NCBI GenBank assembly: GCA_963750335.1
Contig: CAVVQD010000001.1
Location: forward strand, 296,237 to 336,236
Reading direction: 5' to 3'
DNA length: 40,000 nucleotides
Source of the DNA: an uncultured Actinomycetota bacterium
Lineage (GTDB): Bacteria; Actinomycetota; Actinomycetes; Actinomycetales; JBBAYJ01
The translations under genes were made by a program, and so were the position numbers. This document shows positions 8,510-28,165 of this stretch, piece after piece. The notes under the pieces are model-generated. The model saw only the letters and a program-made list of their open reading frames with translations, searched no databases and was not told the DNA's origin. Each line of letters starts with the position of its first letter. Position 1 is the first letter of the stretch.

Positions 8510-8614
8510 CCGCGGCCGTGGCGCTCTCCCGGCCGAGGCGCGGCGGCGGTCGTCCCGCGGCGCCCTGCCCGGACGTGGTGCCCGGTTGTCGGACCCGGGC
8601 GGGAGGCTGACCGC

Positions 8615-9217
8615 GTGGCGGAGCAGGCGCAGGAGCTGACGGTCCCCGACGTCGACGCGTGGCGGGAGTGGCTGGCCGACAACGTCGACCACCAGCCCGG
8701 GGTCTGGCTCACCCTGGCGAAGAAGGGCACGACCACCCCCACGAGCCTCACCTACGCCCAGGCGCTGCAGGAGGCGCTGTGCCAGGGGTGGATCGACGGG
8801 CAGGCCAAGAGCATCGACGAGCAGATCTACCGCCAGCGGTACACCCCGCGGCGGGCTCGGAGCATCTGGTCCGCCCGCAACGTCGGCTACATCGAGAAGC
8901 TCACCGCCGAGGGGCGGATGCAGCCGCAGGGCATCGCCGAGGTCGAGCGGGCCAAGGCCGACGGCCGCTGGGCCGCCGCCTACGAGGGCCCGGCGTCCAT
9001 CCAGGTGCCCGACGACCTGGCCGCCGCCTTCGAGGACGAGCCCGCCGCGAAGGCCCTGTTCGACGAGCTCGACGCCCAGAACCGGTACGCGGTGTTGCAC
9101 CGGGTCACCTCGGCGGTCCGCCCGGAGACCCGAGCCAAGCGCATCAGGGCCAACGTGGCCATGCTCGCCCGGGGCGAGACGCCCTTCCCGCGGCGGATGA
9201 AGCGCACCAGCCGCTGA
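8615..9217 (+). CDS. YdeI/OmpD-associated family protein
   Basis: Intact 200-aa ORF (GTG start). 'TYAQALQEALCQGWIDGQ', 'RQRYTPRRARSIWSARN' and 'NRYAVLHRVTSAVRPETRAKRI' match the YdeI-type family pattern. Confidence 0.7.
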   Translation: MAEQAQELTVPDVDAWREWLADNVDHQPGVWLTLAKKGTTTPTSLTYAQALQEALCQGWIDGQAKSIDEQIYRQRYTPRRARSIWSARNVGYIEKLTAEGRMQPQGIAEVERAKADGRWAAAYEGPASIQVPDDLAAAFEDEPAAKALFDELDAQNRYAVLHRVTSAVRPETRAKRIRANVAMLARGETPFPRRMKRTSR

Positions 9218-9275: not shown

Positions 9276-9755
9276 TCAGACCCCGAGCGCCTTCCGGACC
9301 GACGGCGGGCACGGCCCCGCGTACCGGCGCATCTGCTCGGCGTCGAGGACCACGCGCCGGTCCGTGCGCAGCCAGCTCGTCCCGGGCCTCGGTGACCAGC
9401 CCTGCCGCGGCATGGCCAGCCACCCCGGCCGGCCGGTCTTGTCGGTGCTGGTCACGTAGAGAACCACGCACCGGCGCCCGTGGGTCTCGACCACGACGCA
9501 GGGCCGGTCCTTGCTGCCGGTGCCGTCCTCGAACGGCACCTCCGCCCACCACACGTCCCCGGTCTCCGGCCGGGTCCGGACGGCCCGCCCTGTCGGCCGG
9601 CCGCCGGTACGCCGGGAGGGCGGTCGTCGGGTGGCCCGACGAACCGCTCCCCACAGCACGAGAAAGGCCAGGACGACTACGGCCCAGATCGGGGTCGGGT
9701 CGTCGATCAGCGACAGGGGCCCTGGTGACCCACCCGACAACCCCATGGACATCAC
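9276..9755 (-). CDS. PemK/MazF-like (toxin-fold) protein with an N-terminal transmembrane anchor
   Basis: 'GDVWWAEVPFEDGTGSKDRPCVVV' is the typical N-terminal PemK/MazF strand motif. It is preceded by the hydrophobic helix 'IWAVVVLAFLVLWGAV' and an Arg-rich linker. The start is uncertain (MMSM...). Confidence 0.6.
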   Translation of the reverse strand: MMSMGLSGGSPGPLSLIDDPTPIWAVVVLAFLVLWGAVRRATRRPPSRRTGGRPTGRAVRTRPETGDVWWAEVPFEDGTGSKDRPCVVVETHGRRCVVLYVTSTDKTGRPGWLAMPRQGWSPRPGTSWLRTDRRVVLDAEQMRRYAGPCPPSVRKALGV

Positions 9756-10886: not shown

Positions 10887-11849
10887 TCACGACAACCAGA
10901 ACCGTCGCCAGGGGGCCGACGGCCCGCGACGGGTCGCCGCCTCACCCTCGGCCAGGTCGAGCCCGCGCAGCGACGGGGTGCCGCGGACCGCGTGCGCGAG
11001 GTGCTGGTGCGCCCAGTCCTCGTCGTGGTCGTGCTCCCGGTCGTCTCGGCCGCACACCAGCACCCACTGCGTCCGGCCGCGGGTGCGGGCGTGGATCACC
11101 GTCATCGGGCTCTCCCCGTCCAGCACGACGTGGCGGCAGGCGGCCGCGAGGTGCTCGGCCGGCGTCCCCAGCTGCCAGCCGGGGTCGGCGGCCACCCCGT
11201 CGGTGGGCACGGCCGGGGCACGCCACCCGGGGGGCTGCTCCGCCGAGGTGTCGCGCCCGCCCGGCTGCCACCCGAACACGCCCTGGGCGTCCGGCCACAC
11301 CAGCTGCAGCGCGCGCGGCGGGCGGCGGTGCAACCACGAGGACAGCCGCACCGTCTCGTCCGCCGCGGCGGGGGTGAGCTCGTCGACCACCAGGGGGTGC
11401 CAGGCGAGGGCGCCCTCCACCACGGTCCCCACGGCCAGCCGGTGCCCGCCCACCACCACCCGCTCCGCGACGTCATTGAGCACCTGCGCCATGAGCGCGA
11501 GGGGTTGTCCCGACATCAGCAGCTCGGGGTGGCCGGCCCGGTGGCCAAGCCCGACCGTGTAGACGAACGCCGGGTCGTCCCCGCTCGCGCCCACCCCGGT
11601 GAGGTGCCAGCCGGCGGCCCGCACGTTGCGCAGGACCGGTCCGCCGGTGTCGTCCGGGGCGCTGCTGTCACGACCCGGCCGGCAGAGCCGGCACGTGCAG
11701 CCGCGCGCGACCGGCCTCCGGCGGGCGGCCACCGCCCCGGGCGACGGGTCCGGGCGCAGCGCTGGACGGAGCGCGGTCGCGGGCAGGACGGCGTTGTCGC
11801 GGACCGCGCAGCCGCAGGTGCAGGTGCGCTCGGACGGGGTGCGGCTCAT
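10887..11849 (-). CDS. DUF4262 domain protein with a Cys-rich N-terminal region and a C-terminal extension
   Basis: This is the C-terminal 320 aa of the 746-aa ORF 10887..13127. 'VLRNVRAAGWHLTGVGASGDDPAFVYTVGLGHRAGHPELLMSG' matches the DUF4262 core and is preceded by 'CTCGCA...CTCRLC'. The ATG at 11849 is the first Met after the upstream gene's stop, so the start is uncertain. Confidence 0.6.
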   Translation of the reverse strand: MSRTPSERTCTCGCAVRDNAVLPATALRPALRPDPSPGAVAARRRPVARGCTCRLCRPGRDSSAPDDTGGPVLRNVRAAGWHLTGVGASGDDPAFVYTVGLGHRAGHPELLMSGQPLALMAQVLNDVAERVVVGGHRLAVGTVVEGALAWHPLVVDELTPAAADETVRLSSWLHRRPPRALQLVWPDAQGVFGWQPGGRDTSAEQPPGWRAPAVPTDGVAADPGWQLGTPAEHLAAACRHVVLDGESPMTVIHARTRGRTQWVLVCGRDDREHDHDEDWAHQHLAHAVRGTPSLRGLDLAEGEAATRRGPSAPWRRFWLS

Positions 11850-11901
11850 CCCGGGAGGGTGCGCCGGACCCCGGACACAAGGCCCCGCGACGCCGCGGGC
11901 C

Positions 11902-13127
11902 TCAGCCCAGCGCGGCGGCCAGCGCCCCGAGCAGCCGGTCCACGTCCTCGTCGTCCGTGTACGGCGCCACCCCGATCCGCAGCCCGCCCTCGTCGCCCAG
12001 GCCGAGCCAGCGGCTGGCCTCCAGGGCGTAGAAGTGCCCCGCGGGGGCGTTGACCCCGGCCGCGGCCAGGGCGTGCATGAGGTCGGCGGCCGGACGGTCC
12101 GCCGAGGTCGGCGAGCAGCGTCGGGGTGCGGGACGCGGCGCGCGACCAGACGGTAGCCCCAGGTCGAGCAGACCGGTCTCGATGCGCTCGCGGAGCCGGT
12201 CCTCGTGCTCCTCGAGCACCGCCATCGCGGCGAGGAGCCGGGCCCTGCGGTCGCCTTCGGTAGCGGCCGGCGCCAGGGAAGCCAGCAGGTCGATCGCGGC
12301 GGTGGTCCCGGCGACGAGCTCGTACGGCAGGGTGCCCAGCTCGTAGCGCTCCGGGACGGCGTCGGAGCTGGGGAGCAGCTTGTCCGGGCGGAGCTCCTCG
12401 AGCAGGTCCGGCCCGGCCGGTGAGCACGCCGTGGTGCGGGCCCAGGAACTTGTACGGCGAGCAGACGAAGGTGTCGGCCCCCAGCGCGGCGACGTCGACC
12501 GCGGCGTGCGCAGCGAGGTGGACCCCGTCCACGTGCACCAGCGCCCCGGCCTCGTGCGCGACGGCGGCGACCGCGGGCAGGTCCGGGCGGGTGCCGATGA
12601 GGTTCGACGCCCCGGTCACGGCGACCAGGCGGGTCCGCGGGCCGACGACGGCGGCCACCTCGGCGGGGTCGAGCTCGCCGGTCGCCGGGTCGAACGGCGA
12701 CCCAGCGGACCGTCGCGCCGACGGCCTCGGCCGCGAGCACCCAGGGGCGGATGTTGGCGTCGTGGTCGAGCCGGGTGACGACCACCTCGTCGCCGGGACC
12801 CCAGCCCTGCGACAGCGTGCGCGCCAGCTGGAAGGTCAGCTCGGTGGCGCTGCGCCCGAGCACCACCGTGTCGGCCGGCACCCCGAGCAGGTCGCCGAGC
12901 GCGGCCCGCCCGCCCCGGACGATGACGTCGGCGTTGCGGGCGGCCTGGTTCACGGTGCCCCGGTTCGACAGCGGCGCCAGCAGGGCGTCGCGGACCGCGT
13001 CGGCGACCACGTCGGGGGTCTGGGTGCCGCCCGGCCCGTCGAAGTACGCGGTGCGGTCGGCGAGCTGGGGGAAGTGCGCGCGCAGGGCGGCGACGTCCAG
13101 GGCGTGCGCGGTCGGGAGGTCGGTCAC
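11902..13127 (-). pseudogene. Class-V aminotransferase / cysteine desulfurase family protein. Needs about four frame corrections.
   Basis: The gene reads through these segments:
- N-terminus 'LRAHFPQLADRTAYFDGPGGTQTP...VVTRLDHDANIRPW' in the frame of ORF 10887..13127
- 'FDPATGELDPAEVAAVVGPRTRLVAVTGASNLIGT...VHVDGVHLAAH...CSPYKFLGPHHGVLTG' in the frame of ORF 11846..12658
- 'PDLLEELRPDKLLPSSDAVPERYELGTLPYE...MAVLEEHEDRL' in the frame of ORF 11902..12225
- a short excursion ('ATVWSRAASRTPTLL'), then back to 'AADLMHALAAAGVNAPAGHFYALEA...*'
Frame changes lie near ~12695, ~12414, ~12156 and ~12098. Confidence 0.8.
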
Positions 13128-13285
13128 GACCGCGATCGTGCCGTGCCGGGCGGCCGCGCGCCGCTCGGTCCAGGGCGCGTCCGGTGATACCGACGCGGCA
13201 TCCCCAGCGCGCTGGAACCGGTCGGGGTGACCGTGTGCCTCCCTGCACGCTCGTCCGCGTCTGCGCGGGACGCCGGTGTGCGCCG

Positions 13286-13899: not shown

Positions 13900-14432
13900 T
13901 CAGAGCTGGGCGGCGTAGCAGAACAGGGCGACGGCCGTCCGTCCCTCAACACCCTGCAGGAGGGCGACGTTCAGCTCGGAGGCGAGTGCCACGGTGTCAT
14001 TGAAGGTGCTGACCGCGTCGTAGGCCGGCGCCGTAGGTGCGTTGGCGAGGATGTTCGGGGCCAGCCCTTCTGGGGTGACGGGGGTGCCGCCGAGGACCTC
14101 GTCGCAGGCCGTCTTCGCCGTTCCCTTCCGATGGCGGCCCCGGTGATCCGTTTCCACGTGGACCTAGGCGTGGTGGTGACCACATTCTCGACGATGGCGG
14201 GCTCCACCTGGGCGGTGAGAGCAAGGCGCTCCACGTCATCCGTCGCGAGGACCAGTGAGTCGGACGCTGTCAGCCCGATGCGGGCGAGGTCGTCGGCGGT
14301 GGTGCTGGCAACCCGGACGCCGCTGCTGCAGCCAGCGAGGACGAGCAGCACGAGCAGCACGAGCACCGACGCGACCGGCGTCCTGGGCCGACGAGATGGC
14401 TCGGTCCTCAGGGACCGACTTGGACCAGACAT
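13900..14432 (-). pseudogene. Lipoprotein (hypothetical). Needs one frame correction.
   Basis: Signal peptide plus lipobox 'VLVLLVLLVLAGC' in ORF 13971..14432. After '...VVTTTPRSTWKRITGAAIG' the protein continues as 'KGTAKTACDEVLGGTPVTPEGL...FCYAAQL*' in ORF 13900..14157. One base appears to be missing near ~14131. Confidence 0.6.
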
Positions 14433-14496
14433 GGACGGCTCCGGGGCGGGCTCGTCACCATCGGCCCGCCATCTCAGTCGCCGCAGGTGGTTCCCG

Positions 14497-14910
14497 CTAC
14501 CGGGGACCCTCGTGGGACCTCTGATCCACGGGGTGGCCGGGATGCCTGTCTCCTGCCCCGGAGCGCGAACGGTCGGGGGCCGCGCCGAAAACCTGCTCGA
14601 CCGGGAACCTCAGCTGGTTGCTCGCCAGCTTGTGAAGCGCGGCCCCGGCCAGGTCGACCCCGAGCACGTCGGCCAGCCTGACGAGGTACAGGAGGACGTC
14701 CGCGAGCTCTGACGACATGGCGTCGCTGAGCGGCGCGGTCCGAAGCGCCTTGGTGGCGTTCTCGGCCGGGAGCCACTGCACGAGCTCGGCCACTTCTCCC
14801 ACCTCGCCGACGAGGGCGAGGACCAGAGACTTGGGGTCGTGGAACTGGCTCCAGCCACGGTCGTCCGAGAACCGGCGCATGGCCTCGGTGATGGCACTCA
14901 AGTCGCCCAC
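14497..14910 (-). CDS. MazG-like nucleoside-triphosphate pyrophosphohydrolase, DCTPP1 (dCTP pyrophosphatase 1)-like
   Basis: 'FSDDRGWSQFHDPKSLVLALVGEVGEVAELVQW...SSELADVLLYLVRLADVLGVDL...KLASNQLRFP' closely resembles the DCTPP1/MazG-like four-helix core (EVGE...E..D metal ligands). I prefer the GTG at 14910 because the upstream extension to the ATG at 15009 has poor GC3. GC3 is lower than the genomic norm. Confidence 0.75.
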   Translation of the reverse strand: MGDLSAITEAMRRFSDDRGWSQFHDPKSLVLALVGEVGEVAELVQWLPAENATKALRTAPLSDAMSSELADVLLYLVRLADVLGVDLAGAALHKLASNQLRFPVEQVFGAAPDRSRSGAGDRHPGHPVDQRSHEGPR

Positions 14911-15053
14911 GGCTCCAAGCGTTCCACGCGCACACAGCCACCGGTACGACGTAGGGTCTGCGTCGCGGCCCGACCGGCTTCCGTCGCCCTCACCGGCGGC
15001 ACAGGACATGCCCCCACCCGCACGATTATTCGTGCTGCCCTGGGGGTCCGTCC

Positions 15054-16933
15054 GTGTCGCTCTACCGGCACGTCCGCGGCTGCCCTCGCCGCCGAGGACC
15101 CGGAGTCCGTGGTCGAGCGGTTGTTGGTGCAGATGCTGCACACGGCCGGGGCCAGGGCCGGGGTGAGCGAGCAGCGCTCCTGGCGGGCGAGTCTCCCGGT
15201 GCTGGCCGCGACCTCGTCCACGCGGGGTTGGGGCAGGTCGAGATGCTCCTGGAGCACCCCCTCCCGCTCACCTCACGACGGGCCGACGTCGTCCTGGCTG
15301 GCGTGCACCCACAGACCGGTGAGTCGTCCTACGTGGTGGTCGAGCTCAAGCAGTGGACCGAGGCGTCCGCGTTCGAGGGCGACCCGACGCTGGTGGAGGT
15401 GCCAGGGGCCCCCGGGGGCCCGCGGCTGCACCCGGTTCGACAGGTCGGCGGCTACGTCGACTACTTCCGCAACTACCTCCGTGTCCTGGAGGACCAGCCC
15501 GACGCCATGGTGGGGGCGGCGTACCTGCACAACGCGACCGACCCCGGCAAGGTCGCCGACCTCCGCCTGCTGCCGGAGTCCCCGGCGGGCCGCCTCTTCA
15601 CCGGTGCGGACCGGGGCGCGTTCCACGAGTTCCTCCGCAGCCGCCTGGCGCCGTCGGTCTCGGGGGCAGTCCACGCCGACCGCCTCCTGCAGTCCCAGGT
15701 CGCTCCGAGCACCCAGCTGCTCAAGGTGGCGGCCGACGAGGTCCGCGATCGCGAGCAGTTCCGTCTTGTGGGCGACCAGCAGCTGGCCGTCGACCATGTC
15801 CTCCATGCCGTCGAGGCGTCTCGACAGGCCGACCGCAAGCGCGTCGTCGTGGTGAGCGGGGGGCCGGGCAGCGGCAAGAGCGTCGTCGCGCTGTCGCTGC
15901 TGGGGGAGCTGTCCCGCCGAGGGCGGACCGTCCTGCACGCCACCGGTTCACGGTCGTTCACGCAGACGCTCCGGAAGGTCGTCGGTCACCGCGCTCCCGA
16001 CGTGCGATCGATGTTCAAGTACTTCAACCAGTTCATGGACGCGCGGCGCAACGACCTCGACGTGCTCATCCTGGACGAGGCGCACCGGATCCGGGAGACC
16101 TCGGTGAACCGGTACACCAGAGCCCAGTTCCGTACAGGTCGGCCCCAGATCGACGAGCTGGTCGCGGCCGCTCGGGTGCCGGTCTTCCTGCTCGACCAGC
16201 ACCAGGTGGTGCGGTCGGGGGAGATGGGCTCCCGCGAGGTGCTCGACGCGTTCGTCGCCGACCAGGGCCTAGACGTCGTGCACATCAGCCTCGACGACCA
16301 GTTCCGTTGCGGCGGGAGCCAGGAGTACGTCCAGTGGGTGCAGCAGCTGCTCGGACTGCGCCCGGTGCGGCTGAGCCGTGGACCGGGGACGACCGCTTCG
16401 AGGTGGTCGTTGCCGACGCACCCGAGGAGCTGGAGCAGATCTTGCGCAGCCATACGGAAGCCGGCTACTCCGCCCGCATGTCGGCCGGCTACTGCTGGCC
16501 GTGGAGCAACCCGCGCGACGACGACACCCTCGTCCCGGACGTGCGGGTCGAAGGCTGGGCGAGGCCGTGGAACGTCAAGGCCGAGCGCCGCGTGGGGGAC
16601 GCGCCGCCGGCGTCGCTGTGGGCTACCGAGGACGGCGGCTTCGGCCAGGTGGGCTGCGTCTACACCGCACAGGGCTTCGAGTACGACTGGAGCGGCGTGA
16701 TCCTGGGTCCGGACCTGGTGTGGCGAGACGGCCGGTTCACGAGCGTGCGTGCTGCCAACCGCGACCCTGAGTTTCGGAACCGGAACAAGGTGAGCGACCC
16801 TGACTTCGACCGGCTGGTGCGCAACACCTACAAGGTGCTGCTCACTCGGGGCATGCAGGGGACGGTGCTGTATTCGACGGACGCGGAGACGCGTGCGGCG
16901 CTGCGAAGGCTGACTCGCAGCTCGAAGGGCTGA
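15054..16933 (+). pseudogene. DUF2075 family protein: N-terminal PD-(D/E)xK nuclease-like motif, P-loop/DEAH ATPase and SF1-like C-terminal domain. Needs two to three frame corrections.
   Basis: The gene reads through these segments:
- 'DPESVVERLLVQMLHTAGARAGVSEQRSWRASLPVLAA' in the frame of ORF 14839..15855
- 'DLVHAGLGQVEMLLEHPLPLTSRRADVVLAG...YVVVELKQW' (D...ELK), Walker A 'VVSGGPGSGKSVVAL' and Walker B 'VLILDEAHRI' in ORF 15054..16700
- 'EPWTGDDRFEVVVADAPEEL...GYCWPWS...VGCVYTAQGFEYDWSGVILGPDL...YKVLLTRGMQG' in ORF 15353..16933
Frame changes lie near ~15211 and ~16370. A third, near ~15070, is possible if the GTG at 15054 is the start. The start is uncertain. Confidence 0.75.
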
Positions 16934-16966
16934 ACCCGGCGAAAGCCGCGTGCCTGAAAGCTCCCC

Positions 16967-19900
16967 GTGACAAGCTGCCGGCCGTGGTACCCGAGGACGC
17001 TCCCTGAGGGCATCTACGAGAGCCTCCTCACCCGGGACCTGCTCGCTCGGCTGGCCGACCTGAAGGCCATCACCGCCGACGTCCCCGAGGCCCAGCAGGC
17101 CTCGGCCCTCGGCGACCACGTCGGCCGCCGTGTCACCAAGGCCCTCGAGGCTGTGCCCCCGGCTGAACGGGTGGCCCTGGTCAACGCACTCCTCCGAGGG
17201 CTCGACGGGGACGACGGTCGAGCCCGGTCCACAGCAGCTCTTTCCGTAGCGCGACAGGAGCAACCCGGCGTCTGGACCCTGCTCGGCACCCGCCCCTCCG
17301 TGCCGCTGTCCCGCCCCGCACTGCTGACGAACTCCTCCACCGACCCCAAGCTCGGCGCCGAGCTGCGCGCGGAGCTGGCCACGGCGGACCAGGTCGACCT
17401 GCTCTGCGCCTTCGTCAAGTGGTACGGGCTGCGCGTGCTGGAGGACCAGCTGCTGGCGCGCCACCAGCGAGGGGTGCCGCTGCGGGTCCTCACGACGACG
17501 TACATGGGAGCGACCGACCGGACCGCCCTGGACCGGCTCGTCCGCGACTTCGGCGCCGAGGTCAAGGTCAACTACGAGACGCAGTCGACCCGGCTGCACG
17601 CCAAGGCGTGGCTCTTCCGCCGGCACAGCGGCTACGACACCGCCTACGTCGGCTCCTCGAACCTCAGCCGCGCAGCCCTGCTCGACGGGCTGGAGTGGAA
17701 CGTCAAGCTCGCGGGCTCGCACACCCCCGAGCTGACCGCGAAGTTCGAGGCCACCTTCGACACGTACTGGGCCGACCCCGCGTTCGTCACGTACGACCCG
17801 GACCAGCGACCAGCGACCGGCTCGACCGAGCCCTCGCCGTCGCCGGCGGGCTGCAGGAGCGCGGCACCGTCACCCGCACCATCAGCGGGCTCGAGGTCCG
17901 GCCCTACCCGCACCAGGAGGCCATCCTCGACCGGCTCCGGGTGGAGCGCGAGACCCACGGCCACCACCGCAACCTGGTGGTCGCCGCCACCGGCACCGGC
18001 AAGACCGTCATCGCAGCGCTGGACTACGCCCGGATGCCGGGCCGTCCGTCGCTGCTGTTCGTCGCGCACCGCAAGGAGATCCTCGAGCAGTCGTTGCGGA
18101 CCTACCGCGAGGTCCTCGCCGACGGGGCGTTCGGCGAGCTCTACTGTCGGCGGCGAGGTCCCCTACCGGTGGCGCCACGTGTTCGCGAGCGTGCAGAGCC
18201 TGTCCGCCGCCGGGCTGCAGCGCCTGGCGGTCGACCAGTTCGAGGTCGTCGTGGTCGACGAGTTCCACCACGCCGAGGCCGCGACCTACCGCCGGCTCCT
18301 CGAGCACCTGGAGCCGACCGAGCTGCTGGGGCTCACGGCGACGCCCGAGCGGTCGGACGGGCTCGACGTCCGGACGTTCTTCGGTGGGCGCACCGCTGCG
18401 GAGCTCCGGCTCTGGGACGCCCTGGAGAACGACCTGCTCTGCCCGTTCCACTACTTCGGGATCAGCGACGCCACGGACCTGTCGCGTCTGGACTGGCGGG
18501 CGGGGGACTACAGCACCAGCGCCCTCGAGAACCTCTACACCGCCGACGACGCACGCGTCCGGATCGTCCTCCGTGAGCTGCGGGACAAGGTCCTGGACCC
18601 GACGTCGATGCGCGCGCTCGGGTTCTGCGTCTCGGTCAAGCACGCCCAGTTCATGGCGGACCGCTTCAACGCCGCAGGCATCCCCGCGAGGGCCGTGTCG
18701 GGGAGCACCTCGCGCGAGGACCGGGCCGACGCCCTCCAAGCACTGCGCGACCGGACCGTCAACGTGCTCTTCGCCGTCGACCTCTTCAACGAGGGCCTCG
18801 ACGTCCCCGACGTCGACACGCTGCTCCTGCTGAGGCCGACCCAGAGCGCGACGATCTTCCTGCAGCAGCTCGGGCGGGGCCTGCGCCGGACCGCCGACAA
18901 GCCCGTGCTCACCGTGCTGGACTTCATCGGGCAGCAGAGCCGCGAGTTCCGCTTCGACCTCAAGTACCGCGCCCTGACCGGGGCCAGCAGGTCGGGTCTC
19001 GAGCGACAGCTGGAGAGCGGGTTCGGCTTGTTGCCGTCCGGCTGCGAACTGGTGCTGGACGCCGTGGCCCGGGACGTCGTCCTCGACAACGTCCGCCGTC
19101 AGCTGCGGCTGAGCCGCAAGGAGCTGCTGCACGAGGTCCGCAGCCATGGCGACCTGTCGCTGGCCGACTGGCTGCGCGAGTCCGGGCGCGAGCTGGCCGA
19201 CGTGTTCAAGGCCGGGTCATGGACGGGGCTGCGTCGCGAAGCCGGGTTGCCTGCACCCGCGGCGGGCCCGATCGAGGAGCAGCTGCTCAAGCGGACCAGC
19301 GCGTTCGCGCACGTGGACGACCCCGAGCGGGCGGGGCTGTACCTGCGCCTGCTCGGGGAGGGGTGGACCTACGACGAGCTGTCCGAGCGGGAGCAGCGGC
19401 TCGCGCGGATGATGTTCTTCTCGCTGTGGCCGAACGCGGCCGGCTACACGAGCTACCAGGAGGGCTTTGATGTCCTCGCGGCTCATCCAGCGGTGCGAGA
19501 CGAGATACGGCAGGTCGTCGAGCTGGGGCTGGCCGAGGCCCAGCACGTCGCCCTTCCTCTCGGCCCGGGGCTGCAGCAAGTGACCCTCCAGACGCACGCT
19601 CACTACAGCCGCGACGAGATCCTCGCGGGACTCGGCTGGGCTGGCGTCGACGGCGGGTCACCCCGGAAGACTGCCGGCTTCGCCTCCGGTGTCGTGTGGG
19701 CGCCGGAGGCCAAGGCTGACGCGTTCATGGTCACGCTGACCAAGGACGAGAAGCACTTCTCGCCGCAGACCATGTACAGCGACTACGCCATCAGCCGTGA
19801 CACCTTCCACTGGGAGTCGCAGAACGCCACTGCCGAAGCGTCTCCGACCGGGCAGCGATACGTGCACCACGCCGAGCGGGGGAGCCACGTGCTGCTGTTC

Positions 19901-20065
19901 GTGCGTGCGACCCGGAGCAACAGCTGGGGCGGGACGGCGACGTACCAGTGCCTCGGGCCGGCGACGTACGTGTCGCACGAGGGCGAGCGACCGATGGCCA
20001 TCACCTGGCGCCTGCGGCACGGGATGCCGGTGGACACGTTCAGGGTGGCGTCGGTGGTGGCGTGA
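16967..20065 (+). pseudogene. SauUSI-like type IV (modification-dependent) restriction enzyme architecture: PLD-family nuclease + SF2 (ResIII/DEAH) helicase + DUF3427. An internal out-of-frame segment is bounded by two compensating indels.
   Basis: - PLD motif 'TRLHAKAWLF...AYVGSSNLS'
- helicase motifs II 'VVVDEFHH', III 'LGLTATPER' and VI 'FLQQLGRGLRR'
- DUF3427-like C-terminus 'FSPQTMYSDYAISRDTFHWESQNATAEASPTGQRY...VLLFVR'
Between ~17813 and ~18145 the long ORF reads Ser/Pro/Arg-rich nonsense. Over the same stretch the frame of ORF 17419..18576 reads 'DRLDRALAVAGG...LEVRPYPHQEAILDRL...NLVVAATGTGKTVIAALDYA...LLFVAHRKEILEQS' (Q motif and Walker A). The start (GTG at 16967) is uncertain. Confidence 0.8.
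17801..17818 (+). repeat. Heptanucleotide direct repeat (GACCAGC x2 + GACC) exactly at the first frame change of the SauUSI-like gene
   Basis: 'GACCAGC GACCAGC GACC' was read directly. Upstream codons are in frame 2 and downstream real codons are in frame 1. That fits loss of 1 nt, or loss of one 7-nt unit from a three-unit ancestor. Confidence 0.6.
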
Positions 20066-20126
20066 GCGGGTAGTACGGCGACCTCACGGCTCGCCGCCCA
20101 GCGGACCCGTTGCGAGGATGCGGCCC

Positions 20127-20456
20127 ATGATCTTCATCACCGCCAAGTTCCCCGCGAAGCCCGAGCACGCCGACGCCTGGCCCGAGCTCTCGCGCTCCTT
20201 CACCGAGGCGACCCGCGCCGAGCCCGGCTGCCTGTGGTTCGAGTGGTCCCGCTCGCTCGACGACCCGACCGTCTATGTCCTCGTCGAGGCGTTCCGCGAC
20301 GGCGACGCGGGCGGCGCGCACGTACGGTCCCACCACTTCCGCCAGGCCCAGGCCGACCTGCCGCAGTACCTGAGCGCCACCCCGTCCATCGTCAGCCAGG
20401 AGGTCGACCAGGACGGCTGGTCCGAGCTCGGCGAGATGCGCGTGGACCAGCCCTGA
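20127..20456 (+). CDS. Antibiotic biosynthesis monooxygenase (ABM) family protein
   Basis: 'MIFITAKFPAKPEHADAWPEL...GCLWFEWSRSLDDPTVYVLVEAFRDGDAGGAHVRSHHF' shows the typical ABM ferredoxin-like fold pattern. A GAGGA motif lies 8 nt upstream of the ATG at 20127. An alternative ATG is at 20118. Confidence 0.75.
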   Translation: MIFITAKFPAKPEHADAWPELSRSFTEATRAEPGCLWFEWSRSLDDPTVYVLVEAFRDGDAGGAHVRSHHFRQAQADLPQYLSATPSIVSQEVDQDGWSELGEMRVDQP

Positions 20457-21832: not shown

Positions 21833-21847
21833 ACCTGCTTGAGTTTT

Positions 21848-21877
21848 CACATCCTGAATGACAGTATTCAGGATGTG
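21848..21877. promoter_or_regulatory. Perfect 12-bp inverted repeat (6-nt spacer) in an AT-richer patch at the 5' edge of the MNT/HEPN operon. Candidate operator for the wHTH-MNT protein and/or terminator of the upstream oxidase gene.
   Basis: 'CACATCCTGAAT'-GACAGT-'ATTCAGGATGTG' was read directly. It begins 16 nt after the oxidase stop, and the right arm contains the probable GTG start (21875) of the next gene. Confidence 0.55.
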
Positions 21878-22462
21878 GTCCAAACCGCACCGGCCCTGTT
21901 GCCCCTCCTGCGCAGCGCCGCGCAGGCCCGGGTGCTCGCGCGACTTCTCTTGGCGCCGGCAGTGACGTGGACCGTTTCGTCGCTCGCTGAGGCGGCGGAC
22001 GTGTCCCAGCCGACGGCGAGCCGCGAGGTGCGCCGGCTCGAGCAGACCGGTGTCGTCACGGTCGCCGGCGACCGGAACCTCCGCTCGGTCACCGTGGACA
22101 CCGACGCGCTGTTGTACCCAGAGCTGGCGGGGCTCGTGCTCAAGGCCTTCGGTCCGGCCGCGGTGCTGGGCGAGGAGCTCGCCGACGTGGACGGGGTCGA
22201 CGAGGCGTGGGTGTTCGGCAGCTGGGCCCGCCGCTACCTCGGTGACCCCGGCCCTTCACCGACCGACATCGACCTGCTCGTGGTCGGTGAGCCGGACATG
22301 GACGCCCTCGCCGACGCCGTGACCCGGGCAGGGTCACGTCTGGGCCGTCCGGTTGGTCCTACGGTGCTGAGCCCAGGGGAGTGGGACGCTCCTCCGGACG
22401 GTTTCGTCCGGGCCGTCCGTGATGGTGCGCGGGTGCCGGTGGCCCTGGGGCCGGCCGGATGA
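21875..22462 (+). CDS. Winged-HTH (ArsR/MarR-like) + minimal nucleotidyltransferase (MNT) fusion, an MntA-type antitoxin candidate
   Basis: 'LLRSAAQARVLARLLLAP...SLAEAADVSQPTASREVRRLEQTGVV' is the wHTH. 'VFGSWARRY...SPTDIDLLVVG' is the GS...DxD NTase motif. The ORF track starts it at a TTG at 21839, but I prefer the GTG at 21875. A 4-nt ATGA overlap links it to the next gene. Confidence 0.7.
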   Translation: MVQTAPALLPLLRSAAQARVLARLLLAPAVTWTVSSLAEAADVSQPTASREVRRLEQTGVVTVAGDRNLRSVTVDTDALLYPELAGLVLKAFGPAAVLGEELADVDGVDEAWVFGSWARRYLGDPGPSPTDIDLLVVGEPDMDALADAVTRAGSRLGRPVGPTVLSPGEWDAPPDGFVRAVRDGARVPVALGPAG

Positions 22463-22884
22463 GCGTCGACGCACTGCTCCGCAGCGGTCGGATCGAACGG
22501 GTACCTGCGGACCCCGCCTCGTCCCGCGACCGGATCGCTGCGTGCGAGCAGCACTTGCGCAGCGCCGACCTGCTGGCCGAGGTCGACCCGGCCATGGCCT
22601 ACGCCGCGCTGTACGACGCCGCGCGCAAGGCCCTCACCGCGCACATGCTCGCCCACGGGTACCGGGCCGCCAACCGGGCGGGAGCGCACGAGACCGTGGG
22701 GCTGTACGGCGCCACGGAGGTCGCCGACAGCACCGGAAGCGTGCTCCGGTTCCAGGCGATGAGGTTCAAGCGGAACCGCAGCGAGTACCACGACGTCCCG
22801 GTGGGGCGGCAGGAGGTGGCGGCAGACCTGAACCGGGCTCGAGACATCGTCGAGGCCGTCCGTCGCGCCCTCGAGCAGATGTAG
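22459..22884 (+). CDS. HEPN domain protein, a HepT-type toxin candidate
   Basis: 141-aa all-helical-looking protein with an Rx4-6H motif 'RNRSEYH' near the C-terminal third. It is translationally coupled to the MNT gene. Confidence 0.7.
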   Translation: MSVDALLRSGRIERVPADPASSRDRIAACEQHLRSADLLAEVDPAMAYAALYDAARKALTAHMLAHGYRAANRAGAHETVGLYGATEVADSTGSVLRFQAMRFKRNRSEYHDVPVGRQEVAADLNRARDIVEAVRRALEQM

Positions 22885-25120: not shown

Positions 25121-25173
25121 AAAACGGTATCGACCCGGCAGGGTCGGCCCCGCTCACCGACGAGAGGTCCCCC

Positions 25174-25873
25174 GTGACGGACAAGCGAGCCCTGGTCGTG
25201 CGCGGCGGCTGGGACGGCCACCAGCCGGTCGAGGCCACCGACCGGTTCATCCCGTTCCTGCGCGAGCCACGGCTACGACGTCCGGGTCGAGGAGTCGGCC
25301 GCGGTCTTCGCCGACGGCGACTACATGGCCGGGGTCGACCTCGTCGTCCACTGCGTGACCATGAGCACCATCGAGGCCGACGAGGTCGCCGGCCTGCGGG
25401 CCGCGGTCGCGGCGGGCACGGGGCTCGCGGGCTGGCACGGCGGCATCGCCGACGCCTACCGCGGCACCTCGGACTGGCTGCAGCTGGTCGGCGGGCAGTT
25501 CGCCGGGCACCCGGGCAAGCACCCCGACGAGCGCACCGGTGAGCAGTCCGACAACTACGTGCCGCACCGGATCGAGATGACGGCGGCCGCGGCGGAGCAC
25601 CCGATCACGGCCGGGCTGTCGCGACTTCGACCTGGTGACCGAGCAGTACTGGGTGCTGGCCGACGACTACGTCGACGTGCTCGCCACCACCACCCAGGCC
25701 GTCCTCGGCTGGGAGCCGTGGCACCGGCCCGTCACCTCCCCGGCGGTGTGGACGCGCGCCGTGGGGCGCAGGGCCGGGTGTTCGTCTGCACGCCGGGGCA
25801 CCGGGTCGAGGTCCTCGACGACACGAACGTGCGCACGCTGGTCGAGCGCGGGCTGCTGTGGGCGAGCCGATGA
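25174..25873 (+). pseudogene. ThuA domain protein (trehalose-utilisation-like). Needs at least three frame corrections.
   Basis: The gene reads through these segments:
- 'KRALVVRGGWDGHQPVEATDRFIPFLRE' in the frame of ORF 25174..25542
- 'HGYDVRVEES...VVHCVTMSTIEADEVAGLRAAVAAGTGLAGWHGGIADAYR...QFAGHPG...HPITAGL' in the frame of ORF 25325..25873
- 'DFDLVTEQYWVLADDYVDVLATTT...PAVWTRA' in the frame of ORF 25635..25937
- 'GRVFVCTPGHRVEVLDD...RGLLWASR*'
Frame changes lie near ~25267, ~25621 and ~25761-25773. Confidence 0.8.
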
Positions 25874-26950
25874 GGGTCGGCATCGTCGGCTGCGGCGCCA
25901 TCGTCGGGCAGTACCTCGAGACGTTCGCCCGGCGTGAGCGCGGTCGACCTCGTCGCCGTCGCCGACCGGGACCCGGCCAGGGCGCAGACGGTCGCCGCCC
26001 AGAGGCCCGGGGTGCGGGCGCTGAGCGTCGACGACCTGCTCGCCGACGACGCAGGTCGACGTGGTCCTCAACCTCACCGTCCCCGCGGCGCACGCCGAGG
26101 TCGGCCGGCGCGTGGTCGCGGCCGGCAAGCACCTGTACGGCGAGAAGCCGCTGACCGCCACCACGGCCGAGGCGGTCGAGCTGCTCGATGCGGCCCGCGC
26201 CGCCGGGGTGCTCGTCGGCTGCGCCCCGGACACCGTCCTGGGGACGGGCGTGCAGACCGCGCGCAAGGCGCGTCGACGACGGGCTCGTCGGGGCCCCGGT
26301 CTTCGCTACCGCGACCATGATCACGGCGGGCCACGAGCGCTGGCACCCGGACCCGGACTTCTACTACGTGCCCGGCGGCGGGCCGCTCATGGACATGGGC
26401 CCGTACTACGTGACCACGCTGGTGACGCTGCTCGGGCCGGTCTCGTCGGTCGTCGGGGCGGGCAGCCGCACCCGGGGCGAGCGGACCATCGCCACCGGCC
26501 CGCGGGCCGGGCAGAGCGTGCCGGTCGACCACGGACACGCACGTGAGCGCGGTGCTCACGCACGCGTCGGGGGTGCTGTCGACGCTGGTCATGAGCTTCG
26601 ACGGGGTGGCCACCCGCACGCCCAACATCGAGGTGCACGGCGAGCGGGGCAGCCTCGTGCTGCCCGACCCCAACTACTTCGACGGCGAGGTCCGGCTCCG
26701 CACCCTGGACCAGGACGACTGGTCGGTGCTGCCGATGTCGGCCGGGTACGAGGACGCGGGCCGCGGCTACGGCCTCGCCGACATGGCGCGCACGCCCGCC
26801 GGGCAGCCGCACCGGGCCAGCGGCGAGCTCGCGCTGCACGTGCTCGAGATCATGGAGTCCGTGCTCGCCTCGGCCGCGAGCGGGACGTCGGTGACGCTGC
26901 GGAGCACGGTCGAGCGGCCTGCGGCGGTGCCGCTCGGGTCGCTGCCCTGA
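25870..26950 (+). pseudogene. Gfo/Idh/MocA family oxidoreductase. Needs four frame corrections.
   Basis: The gene reads through these segments:
- 'MRVGIVGCGAIVGQYLETFAR'
- 'SAVDLVAVADRDPARAQTVAA...'
- 'QVDVVLNLTVPAAHAEVGRRVVAAGKHLYGEKPL...'
- 'VDDGLVGAPVFATATMITAGHERWHPDPDFYYVPGGGPLMDMGPYYVT...'
- 'TDTHVSAVLTHASGVLSTLVMSFDG...*'
The pieces come from ORFs 25858, 25934, 26061, 26188 and 26543 in turn. Frame changes lie near ~25932, ~26051, ~26271 and ~26530, and all are in the same (+1) direction. Confidence 0.85.
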
Positions 26951-27365: not shown

Positions 27366-28031
27366 TCAGCGGCTCGCGCGGGCCAGCGGGGTGCCGTCCA
27401 GCGCGTGCCGGAAGGCCACCAGCGAGTCGAAGACCTGCAGGACGCCGGCCTCCTGCAGCTCGCCGACCGAGAAGCCGCCGGTGCGCACCCCGAGGGTCGG
27501 CATCTGCAGCTTGGCCGCCGCCTGGGCGTCGTAGACGGAGTCGCCGACCATGACGCCGCTGCGCGCCCTCCGACCTTGGCCAGCGCGGCCGCCAGAGGTC
27601 CGGCTCGGGCTTGCTCTTCTGCACGTCGTCGGAGGTGGTCCAGGCGTCGGCGAGGGACTTGCCGTCGATCAGGTCGAGGAAGGCCTCGACGTGCTCGGTC
27701 TTCCCGGAGCTGGCCAGCACGAGCCGGAACCCGCGCTCCTTGACCTCGGCGAGCAGCTCGTGCGGCGCCCTCGAAGGGCTGGACCTCGCCGATCAGCTCG
27801 TCGAACTCCTCTGTCCAGGCGTCGCGCAGCTCGTCGCCGTGCGCCTGCTCGACCTCCGGGCCGGCCACCTCGGTGACGAACAGGTCCCCGCCCATGCCGA
27901 TGGCGCGGTGCGAGGCGCCACAGCGGCCGGGTGATGTCGAAGCGGCGGAACGCCCGGAACCAGGCGAGGGCGTGCTGGTAGTTGGTGTCCACGAGGGTGC
28001 CGTCGACGTCGAAGATCGCGGTGTCGGCCAT
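27366..28031 (-). pseudogene. HAD-superfamily hydrolase (phosphatase). Needs four frame corrections.
   Basis: The gene reads through these segments:
- 'MADTAIFDVDGTLVDTNYQHALAWFRAFRRF' (DxDGT motif I)
- 'HRAIGMGGDLFVTEVAGPEVEQAHGDELRDAW...'
- 'HELLAEVKERGFRLVLASSGKTEHVEAFLDL...SKPEPDL'
- 'LAAALAKVGG'
- 'VMVGDSVYDAQAAAKLQMPTLGVRTGG...*'
The pieces come from ORFs 27669..28031, 27290..27895, 27235..27720, 27290..27895 and 27366..27551 in turn. Frame changes lie near ~27918, ~27765, ~27600 and ~27563. Confidence 0.8.
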
Positions 28032-28165
28032 GGTTGACGTCCTACCCCGGGTCCGTACGGGTACTCAGAGACCGGCTCCTTCTGGCGACGCGAGCGACGA
28101 CGGGCCCCCGGCGCGCCACCGGCCCGCCCCCGAGGAGGGGACGGGCCGGTGCCGAGCGAGGCGGG

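Follow-up and report, generated by a model that had tools for sequence, protein, structure and literature searches.

Introduction

The Type IV restriction enzyme SauUSI carries a PLD nuclease, a superfamily 2 (SF2) helicase and DUF3427, in that order, and as a single polypeptide it cleaves DNA containing 5-methylcytosine (5mC) or 5-hydroxymethylcytosine (5hmC) in an ATP-dependent manner (PMC3141236). Nhi and Nhi-like proteins are validated single-protein defences in which a nuclease is joined to a helicase (10.1101/776245; 10.1101/2022.05.11.491447). A DUF2075 NTPase was observed beside the DUF3427 nuclease McaZI by Lutz et al. (2019), who proposed a joint test of the two with ATP (PMC6765204). 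At the level of the nucleotide pool, methylated dCTPs are cleared by DCTPP1 (PMC13291643), and a role in defence has been predicted for MazG domains but not validated (PMC13092281). Here we describe a locus that carries relatives of several of these proteins, together with a structured RNA leader, in a 40,000-nucleotide stretch of DNA from an uncultured Actinomycetota bacterium (contig CAVVQD010000001.1, positions 296,237 to 336,236; hereafter ‘the window’).

The central gene of this locus encodes a DUF2075 protein, flanked by a divergent MazG-like gene and by a gene for a SauUSI-like enzyme. The locus is probably a small anti-phage island of separable modules rather than one machine with three components. 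No described system that combines MazG, DUF2075 and DUF3427 was found in PADLOC or in the literature searched, in agreement with a first-pass annotation of this DNA that had been made from the sequence alone. The same literature holds no description of a leader-bearing DUF2075 module or of MazG in this context, and we found no prior description of a dedicated MazG-DUF2075 pair with facultative nuclease partners as a pattern.

Results and discussion

Layout of the locus

The window consists of actinobacterial DNA of 70-80% GC, and its nearest relatives are Aquipuribacter species. The first-pass annotation had recognized three adjoining genes about one short divergent control region within positions 14497-20065, and this arrangement is borne out, with MazG-like on the minus strand and DUF2075 and SauUSI-like on the plus strand. 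The gap of 33 nt originally given between the DUF2075 stop codon and the SauUSI-like start codon is correct. The control region is present as described, but the leader RNA inside it had been missed. The features of the locus, with the evidence for each, are as follows.

14497..14910, minus strand: gene for a MazG-like, DCTPP1-like predicted pyrophosphatase (Pfam, PDB match, family alignment, DUF2075-linked clade)
14911..15053, no strand: divergent intergenic control region of 143 nt between the MazG-like and DUF2075 genes (direct sequence reading)
14952..14957, plus strand: -10-like hexamer TAGGGT of the TAnnnT type, a putative promoter element (position kept across loci)
14963..15065, plus strand: structured 5′ leader of the DUF2075 mRNA (covariance model R1, covariation, folding)
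15054..16933, plus strand: gene for a predicted PD-(D/E)xK and DUF2075 (superfamily 1B, SF1B, helicase) protein of Nhi-like architecture, read in three frames (Pfam, tblastn, AlphaFold 2 (AF2) model, Foldseek)
16967..20065, plus strand: gene for a SauUSI-like Type IV modification-dependent restriction enzyme (Pfam, PADLOC mREase_IV, PDB 7CLG)

A structured leader precedes DUF2075 genes

An alignment of MazG-DUF2075 intergenic regions reveals a conserved element that ends approximately 8 nt before the DUF2075 start codon. The copy in the window scores 91.6 bits against covariance model R1 (E 7e-21). A simple sequence pattern locates the leader upstream of DUF2075 in 75 of the 78 loci that have at least 100 nt of upstream sequence, and the covariance model yields 101 matches at E<1e-9, three of which are second copies. 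Leaders are present in essentially all members of the DUF2075 family, including loci that the pattern missed, whether or not MazG or SauUSI-like genes are nearby. When positions 14400-15400 were compared with Rfam 15 at E <= 10, only chance-level matches were returned, none of them on the plus-strand leader, and we found no prior description of this element. A viral collection of 2.9 million contigs contains the leader on one contig, again within a divergent MazG-leader-DUF2075 locus (L171:635-2973, on a 54 kb IMG/VR contig; L numbers denote loci throughout).

From 5′ to 3′, the -10-like TAnnnT hexamer is followed by the P1 hairpin, the sequence UUCC, a variable hairpin and a three-tier hairpin. 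The parts of the window leader, all on the plus strand, are these.

14968-14978: P1 hairpin (G-Y-C / G-R-C, loop CGACN)
15004-15007 / 15050-15053: outer helix, often including the start codon
15011-15015 and 15042-15046: anti-Shine-Dalgarno (anti-SD) CCCCC and Shine-Dalgarno (SD) GGGGG, forming the middle helix
15020-15025 / 15030-15035: invariant inner helix GCACGA/UCGUGC
15054-15056: DUF2075 start codon GTG, paired with 15000-15002

The hexamer lies about 7 nt upstream of the leader 5′ end, and its counterparts at other loci read, for example, TAGAGT, TAAAGT and TACTGT. A stretch of DNA that the window shares with L002 and L004 starts at 14947, a short distance upstream of the leader. Within the three-tier hairpin an internal loop (ACCC / UGCC) is conserved, and the middle hairpin of the leader varies in length and sequence and is missing at some loci. 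The predicted fold of the whole leader buries both the ribosome-binding site and the start codon of DUF2075. Folding energies of the 3′ hairpin range from about -16 to -36 kcal/mol across loci, and the window leader as a whole has a minimum free energy of -48.9 kcal/mol (z -3.6 versus shuffles).

Covariation and two possible alternative folds

Covariation was computed on a model-fitted alignment of 101 leader copies. Cells at the predicted partner columns are paired in 85.9% of cases, versus 38-54% when the partners are slid by 1-3 columns. Ten pairs exhibit double changes, and the count of 50 compensatory cells was matched by 0 of 500 shuffles. RNAalifold applied to the raw MAFFT alignment, in which the G-run columns are out of register, recovers no more than the inner helix and a portion of the middle helix. 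G-U pairs far exceed A-C mismatches in the well-aligned helices, as would fit an RNA read from the sense strand; the global G-U/A-C count is affected by the register problem.

Column 16, a purine in the P1 3′ strand, covaries with column 7, to which it pairs in P1, and does so more strongly with column 90, the pyrimidine at the anti-SD 5′ edge. For this second pair the alignment gives 76 G-C, 17 A-U, 6 A-C and 1 G-U combinations (Fisher p 2.5e-13, with the kinship of the sequences ignored). Because column 16 cannot pair with columns 7 and 90 at once, this three-way covariation suggests that the leader RNA may adopt two alternative folds.

HNH genes beside DUF2075, a tandem DUF2075 paralogue (L084, L087) and an HNH-like gene (L083) are directly preceded by diverged second copies of the leader. 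The second copies keep the 5′ half (the P1 box and GGACAUGCCYCCACCC) and have a different inner helix, which favours an RNA structure over a fixed DNA operator. Such copies suggest shared control of DUF2075 and its nuclease neighbours, forming a small leader-defined regulon. Copies of this second type (type 2) stand before HNH_2 genes at the following positions, with (-) denoting the minus strand.

L014:11926, L015:11921, L026:11913, L027:2138, L028:11918
L033:11911, L035:4798, L038:2446, L046:5049, L053:8893
L065:11873, L067:3354(-), L068:3587, L080:9433(-), L088:2611(-)

The copies that precede the tandem second DUF2075 paralogue, a protein of ~645 amino acids (aa), are near-canonical and score ~52 bits (L084:11946-12044 and L087:11907-11992). 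At L080 and L088, MazG lies between two leaders. A second match to the 5′ box in the window, at 17224 on the minus strand, was rejected as a chance match, being located within the SauUSI-like gene with no other leader features. Likewise, SauUSI-like genes have no leader of their own, as no copy occurs upstream of standalone or divergent members.

The DUF2075 protein is a new sequence family with a predicted Nhi-like architecture

The DUF2075 assignment made at first pass holds, and the motifs GPGSGKS, DEAH and D78...E97-x-K99 are all found. Pfam family PF09848 matches in two frames, with 136 bits for profile positions 1-178 and 144 bits for positions 180-354. Residues D78, E97 and K99 are invariant in alignments of 14 and of 24 DUF2075 homologues. 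In an AF2 model of an 81%-identical homologue (mean predicted local distance difference test score, pLDDT, of 69), these residues are borne by an N-terminal alpha-beta-beta-beta-alpha-beta unit, predicted with moderate confidence. Foldseek returns the SF1B helicases RecD2, Dda, Upf1, Dna2 and SLFN11. The best PADLOC match is the candidate system PDC-S41 (68 bits), a PDB sequence search gave just a chance-level match to RadA, and NCBIfam has no model for either the DUF2075 or the MazG-like protein. The protein represents a new sequence family whose predicted architecture is a known one.

The MazG-like protein resembles DCTPP1

The MazG-like protein matches Pfam PF03819 with 31 bits (cut-off 22) and falls slightly below the cut-off of PF12643 (26.7 bits versus 27). 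Among PDB sequences it is best matched by mouse RS21-C6 and human DCTPP1 (E 5.6e-20), so that both the MazG-like and the DCTPP1-like parts of the earlier assignment are supported. Its metal ligands E36, E39, E68 and D71 (an E-x2-E ... E-x2-D motif) are invariant in 19 homologues, as are W20, W46 and Y75, whose equivalents in the mouse enzyme are W47, W73 and Y102. We infer from these likenesses that the protein is a DCTPP1-type dNTP pyrophosphatase, with a predicted preference for dCTP or 5-modified dCTPs.

Because members of this family typically have 115 aa, the most likely start codon is the GTG at 14910, which leaves the intergenic region of 143 nt. The database call P0241 (170 aa) is probably over-extended, as it would run antisense through the DUF2075 leader. 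A -10-like hexamer is situated ~8 nt upstream of the GTG (within 14911-14935, minus strand), and similar hexamers are observed at other loci. This spacing suggests that the MazG mRNA may be leaderless.

The SauUSI-like protein belongs to a known family

All four Pfam domains expected from the earlier assignment of a PLD nuclease, an SF2 helicase and DUF3427 are matched (PLDc_2, ResIII, Helicase_C and DUF3427). PLDc_2 scores 41.7 bits with the motifs ‘LHAKAW’ and ‘GSSNLS’, DUF3427 (PF11907) scores 67.2 bits over residues 825-1025, and the Walker A sequence ‘AATGTGKT’ and ‘VDEFHH’ are found after frame correction. The PADLOC model mREase_IV scores 1085 bits. PDB chain 7CLG (annotated ‘Putative helicase’, 953 aa), which we take to be the SauUSI structure, matches over the PLD and helicase regions (E 5.4e-81), with the PLD region aligned. 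Identity is 90% to the intact protein P0121 and 88% to the A. hungaricus protein.

The gene taken alone is an ordinary new member of a known family. Its domain order is the one published for SauUSI (PMC3141236), as the first-pass annotation had claimed, and by this homology the product would be a self-sufficient, ATP-dependent Type IV restriction enzyme. With a gap of 33 nt, it is likely that the window gene is read off the same transcript as DUF2075. A consensus scan of 14300-20300 for promoters and terminators gave no match, a result that is uninformative in DNA of 70% GC.

Neighbours of DUF2075 genes

A one-genome-per-species scan yields at least 556 relatives of the DUF2075 protein, and the best 80 (57-80% identity) were surveyed with up to 10 kb of flanking sequence. 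Partner genes at these loci were found by tblastn with the partner proteins. Their occurrence is as follows.

MazG-like: within 1.5 kb of DUF2075 in 32/80 loci, 25 of them divergent and upstream with a gap of 106-224 nt
SauUSI-like: within 1.5 kb in 12/80 loci, within 10 kb in 15/80
HNH_2 nuclease with a weakly EVE-like N-terminus: within 1.5 kb in 15/80 loci, 14 of them directly downstream on the same strand
ScoMcrA-like SBD-HNH: within 1.5 kb in 2/80 loci
None of these four: 27/80 loci

As an internal control, the sequence beyond 1.5 kb in the same 80 loci holds 0 MazG, 3 SauUSI-like and 1 HNH gene, although it amounts to 881 kb versus the 216 kb near DUF2075. The adjacency of MazG and SauUSI-like genes to DUF2075, a question raised by the first-pass annotation, is thus non-random. 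Clustering of all flanking open reading frames (ORFs) exposed no recurrent DUF2075 neighbour besides MazG, SauUSI-like and HNH nucleases, which argues that these partners travel with DUF2075 and do not mark a fixed chromosomal site.

The association was also examined from the side of MazG. Among 80 metagenome loci with MazG as the anchor, ~26-29 have DUF2075 or its leader next to MazG. DUF2075-linked MazGs cluster in a neighbour-joining tree (nearest-neighbour labels agree in 83 of 96 cases), and the window MazG falls within this clade. The other MazG clade sits in a conserved, housekeeping-like block whose products resemble, by eye, an MFS transporter, a UvrD-like helicase and an FMN reductase. 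The idea that MazG is a housekeeping landmark beside an integration hotspot was rejected for the DUF2075-linked clade, as the gene beyond MazG is not conserved there; it is also contradicted by the fact that these MazGs form a clade of their own.

MazG and a modification-dependent nuclease are both present within 1.5 kb of DUF2075 in 7 loci, versus 11.2 expected (odds ratio 0.36, p 0.057). SauUSI-like genes occur in 3 of the 32 loci with MazG and in 9 of the 48 without it (odds ratio 0.45), and all three genes are found within 1.5 kb in 3 of the 80 loci.

Gene combinations in relatives

The trio occurs in at least four gene orders, represented by the window, L005, L006-8, L105, L136, L039, L043 and L062. 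These are:

MazG(-)/DUF2075(+)-SauUSI(+): window and L005; more loosely L039 and L062
DUF2075(-)/MazG(+)-SauUSI(+): Motilibacteraceae metagenome-assembled genome L006-8, and L105
Two convergent variants: L043 and L136

In L006, 76 nt separate MazG from the SauUSI-like gene. Relatives at 79-84% DNA identity present every sub-combination: L005 has all three genes, L002 has leader-DUF2075-SauUSI without MazG, L004 has leader-DUF2075 with a convergent HNH gene, and L001 (Aquipuribacter hungaricus) has the SauUSI-like orthologue alone, in a syntenic position downstream of the same OmdA gene. Solitary SauUSI-like orthologues are also present in L169 and L170. The existence of all these sub-combinations, and the lack of a positive link between MazG and the nucleases, point to DUF2075 as a hub with interchangeable accessory modules.

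Base composition and surroundings of the locus

Over most of the length of the trio, the GC content at third codon positions (GC3) is 0.89-0.93, in keeping with the lower value reported at first pass. It reaches 0.97 in one short stretch, and is 0.97-0.99 in most other genes checked; the exceptions in the window are a downstream FAD-oxidase-like gene (0.94) and an MNT/HEPN-like pair, which is lower. A flanking ‘truncated remnant’ that the first-pass annotation had cited as a sign of acquisition is indistinguishable from a frameshifted gene at the present sequence quality.

A PemK/MazF toxin fragment is located at 9399-9581 (minus strand). At 21839-22884 (plus strand) a gene with a helix-turn-helix and a nucleotidyltransferase is followed by a small gene, a possible HEPN-like partner for which Pfam gave no HEPN match. 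The flanking genes of toxin-antitoxin type and the lower GC3 mark 9-23 kb as a variable region. An OmdA-domain gene is common to the window (8579-9181) and A. hungaricus (L001:8041-8648). It is separated from the downstream SauUSI-like gene by ~1.3 kb in A. hungaricus versus 7.8 kb in the window, where the interval holds other genes including MazG-DUF2075. This difference implies either an insertion in the window or a loss in A. hungaricus, in both cases beside a resident SauUSI-like gene. Downstream of the SauUSI-like gene, A. hungaricus carries two GmrSD-type genes and a gene for a 1661-aa AAA_11/AAA_12 helicase with MTES_1575 (L001:13170-22890), a separate defence island without DUF2075 or MazG.

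In L005, the closest intact relative, MazG is adjoined by a gene matching Pfam PF26887 (Phage_T4_End_IV; L005:6864-7466, minus strand) and then by a Fic gene. The PF26887-matching gene has no counterpart in the window. Endonuclease IV of phage T4 cleaves cytosine-containing single-stranded DNA.

A proposed modular island around a nuclease-helicase hub

From the data presented, we favour a small modular island in which the DUF2075 protein, through its predicted PD-(D/E)xK nuclease and its SF1B helicase, would unwind and degrade invading or replicating phage DNA. In the default leader fold, the CCCCC anti-SD would pair with the GGGGG SD and bury the start codon, such that translation is off. Upon some trigger, the P1 3′ strand would pair with the anti-SD and free the ribosome-binding site. 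The SauUSI-like gene, lying close downstream without a leader of its own, would probably be co-transcribed with DUF2075; by homology to SauUSI, its DUF3427 domain would read modified cytosine, the SF2 motor would translocate and the PLD nuclease would cut. The MazG-like protein, probably made from its own divergent and possibly leaderless promoter, belongs to a clade that appears to have co-evolved with DUF2075 and most likely hydrolyses non-canonical (5-modified) dCTP. Such hydrolysis would either starve phages with modified DNA or keep modified nucleotides out of host DNA. MazG would then act at the level of the nucleotide pool and the nucleases at the level of DNA. The tendency of MazG and modification-dependent nucleases to replace each other fits a scheme in which both handle modified cytosine for the hub.

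Several observations weigh against this reading. The activities and the defence role of the DUF2075 family and the MazG clade are predictions from homology, and PADLOC has no model that matches the MazG-like protein. For the N-terminal nuclease fold of the DUF2075 protein, the support consists of a motif and a model of medium confidence (pLDDT 69); residues 1-232 have no Pfam match, and the PADLOC Nhi model aligns only to residues 240-400, the helicase N-lobe, with 34.5 bits. The survey is confined to the best 80 among at least 556 relatives and disregards kinship. For the leader, the covariation counts lean towards the model to which the alignment was fitted, and are limited by high conservation.

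Further difficulties are contained in the alternatives. The DUF2075 protein, with or without MazG, might be a regulated nuclease-helicase for DNA repair or replication stress, accompanied by a sanitizer of the nucleotide pool, with restriction genes accruing at a permissive hotspot. An identity of 57-81% across several actinobacterial orders, which is unusual for a defence gene, agrees with such a role, and the 27 of 80 loci without a defence-type partner would fit it as well. Housekeeping or stress genes under tight regulation are where a dedicated and universally conserved translational leader would more typically be expected; RecD2, Dna2 and SLFN11 are among the structural neighbours, and one MazG clade is clearly in housekeeping synteny. 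However, the flanks of DUF2075 vary and only MazG, SauUSI-like and HNH genes recur, which indicates that the DUF2075 gene moves, and its GC3 is below that of most other window genes checked. The protein shares its predicted architecture with Nhi and Nhi-like, both validated defences (10.1101/776245; 10.1101/2022.05.11.491447), and has a resemblance to the PADLOC candidate PDC-S41. Moreover, a related leader is positioned to drive the adjoining HNH genes, which argues for shared regulation over hotspot accretion. On balance, a repair or replication-stress role seems unlikely.

The first-pass annotation had suggested that the three genes form one functional unit. In its strictest form, this would be an integrated system against modified cytosine in which all three genes are needed, and in which MazG cleans the modified-dCTP pool and thereby prevents attack on self. 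The trio recurs in at least eight independent loci and at least four gene orders with tight spacing (33 nt in the window, and in L006 76 nt from MazG to the SauUSI-like gene), which leaves room for real functional coupling. Methylated dCTP is cleared by DCTPP1-type enzymes (PMC13291643), and DUF2075 has been seen beside another DUF3427 nuclease (PMC6765204). What stands from that suggestion are the family assignments and the non-random co-location. An obligate unit in which MazG serves the SauUSI-like enzyme is not supported, as each of the two is linked to DUF2075 and not to the other (3/32 versus 9/48). The odds ratio of 0.36 for MazG with any modification-dependent nuclease, the scarcity of complete trios (3/80 within 1.5 kb), the solitary SauUSI-like orthologues and the close relatives that lack one or two of the genes all run counter to it, and SauUSI itself acts as a single polypeptide (PMC3141236). 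We consider an integrated three-gene system quite improbable.

Frame breaks and sequence quality

Seven indels of 1-2 nt break the DUF2075 and SauUSI-like genes. They were placed by DNA alignment to L005, a Logan contig with an intact trio at 82% DNA identity. Relative to L005, they are at 15071 (+1), 15209 (-1) and 16359 (-1) in the DUF2075 gene, and at 17216 (+1), 17240 (-1), 17806 (+2; 17806-17807) and 18145 (+1) in the SauUSI-like gene. As written, positions 17815-18144 of the SauUSI-like gene, which carry helicase motif I (Walker A), are out of frame; because of these indels, the annotated 1032-aa ORF is without the helicase Walker A segment. When the indels are removed, full-length proteins of 626 aa (DUF2075) and 1031 aa (SauUSI-like) result, with no stop codons.

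Frame breaks are not particular to this locus, a point missed at first pass. Pfam matches show a class-V aminotransferase gene (Aminotran_5, 11902-13169, minus strand) split over three frames and a ThuA gene (25141-25870, plus strand) split over at least two, and the profile coordinates of the pieces are consecutive or non-overlapping across frames. In a GC3 frame plot there are signs of more breaks at 26-30 kb, where an oxidoreductase gene (26025-26929, plus strand), a HAD hydrolase gene (27366-28058, minus strand) and a glycosyl hydrolase gene (28166-29985, minus strand) are probably also broken. Other long genes are intact, such as an acetyl-CoA synthetase-like gene at 34837-36798. This mixture of broken and intact genes speaks for assembly indel errors that are concentrated in some stretches. 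A DUF4262 gene (10929-11585, minus strand) is merged into one long ORF with the upstream frameshifted aminotransferase gene, and this 746-aa ORF (10887-13127) is spurious, a product of high-GC DNA being free of stops when read out of frame.

Substitutions between the window and L005 fall at third codon positions in 51-93% of cases in every frame segment, including the 330-nt segment 17815-18144, which implies that the indels are recent or, more simply, assembly errors. Since unrelated genes of the window are broken likewise, the frame breaks of the DUF2075 and SauUSI-like genes are most likely assembly errors. That they are real, and the two genes decaying pseudogenes in this strain, would count against a working island and would agree with the density of seven indels in 5 kb, with the same 1032-aa ORF in the public record of the same contig (P0122) and with the frequent loss of island genes, but is very unlikely given that Aminotran_5, ThuA and probably other metabolic genes are broken too, that correction leaves neither stop codons nor large deletions, that third-position bias is kept in every shifted segment including 17815-18144, and that the 82%-identical relative L005 is intact. 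The frame breaks represent a data-quality issue that is relevant to any annotation of this assembly.

Implications of the proposed modular island

If the modular island is interpreted correctly, it is a widespread actinobacterial module, given that the DUF2075 family is present in at least 556 species-level genomes and its PADLOC matches are weak (PDC-S41, partial Nhi). It would consist of a Nhi-like nuclease-helicase under predicted translational silencing, often paired with a DCTPP1-like clade or with a modification-dependent nuclease. Should these pairings be functional, they would suggest that phages with modified cytosine are countered in layers, at the nucleotide pool and at the DNA, and would give DCTPP1-type enzymes a first role in bacterial immunity. 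The leader is a candidate new class of cis-regulatory RNA that controls defence genes. On a practical level, the SauUSI-like enzyme is a likely barrier to the introduction of methylated DNA into these bacteria.

A more speculative proposal, to which we assign a low probability, is that the leader is a riboswitch-like sensor of a non-canonical nucleotide (e.g. phage-made 5-modified dCTP) that gates a nuclease regulon. This regulon may comprise DUF2075, the co-transcribed SauUSI-like enzyme and, via the sister leader, the HNH nucleases, which would be useful only against phages with modified DNA. The constitutive divergent MazG may then hydrolyse the ligand, set the threshold and reset the switch. 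The two exclusive pairings, the 5′ half shared between leaders and the location of MazG between leaders in L080 and L088 prompt this idea, and if true it would describe a metabolite-gated innate immune circuit in which an enzyme partner tunes the sensor. The trigger could equally be a protein, a small RNA, temperature or the helicase itself.

Comparison with known systems

Riboswitch platforms and translational leaders that sequester the SD form the same anti-SD/SD helix over the ribosome-binding site and start codon, and like the window leader such platforms have a competing upstream strand with covariation and a peripheral hairpin of variable length. Unlike these platforms, the DUF2075 leader has no Rfam match, maintains an invariant inner helix in its main type, and is predicted to control nuclease genes of the defence type.

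The MazG-like protein shares with the mammalian all-alpha NTP pyrophosphatase DCTPP1/RS21-C6 a near-identical core, ‘FH.P..L.LALVGEVGE.AEL.QW’, as well as the metal ligands and the W/W/Y residues of the substrate site. H38 of mouse DCTPP1 is not kept, and unlike DCTPP1 the window protein is a bacterial protein of 115 aa whose gene forms a divergent pair with a nuclease-helicase gene. The SauUSI-like enzyme has the same three-domain order as SauUSI, including the PLD HxK...N motif, and direct sequence homology to it. In contrast to SauUSI, it is actinobacterial, has ~1025 aa and a more diverged DUF3427 (67 bits), is frame-broken as sequenced, and is encoded 33 nt downstream of a DUF2075 gene with which it is probably co-transcribed.

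McaZI-type DUF3427-DUF3883 nucleases are also found beside a DUF2075 NTPase, whereas in the window the DUF3427 protein is a complete SauUSI-type enzyme that has a motor of its own. Beyond the McaZI pairing, the present DUF2075 family associates with HNH nucleases and MazG as well, and the association is quantified and facultative. Nhi of S. epidermidis and Nhi-like proteins have the build that is predicted for the DUF2075 protein, namely an N-terminal PD-(D/E)xK-type nuclease followed by a DUF2075 SF1B helicase, and the structural neighbours of Nhi, Dda, Upf1 and DNA2 (10.1101/776245), recur among its Foldseek matches. Unlike Nhi, the DUF2075 family of the window is equipped with a structured leader and with recurrent MazG, SauUSI-like and HNH partners.

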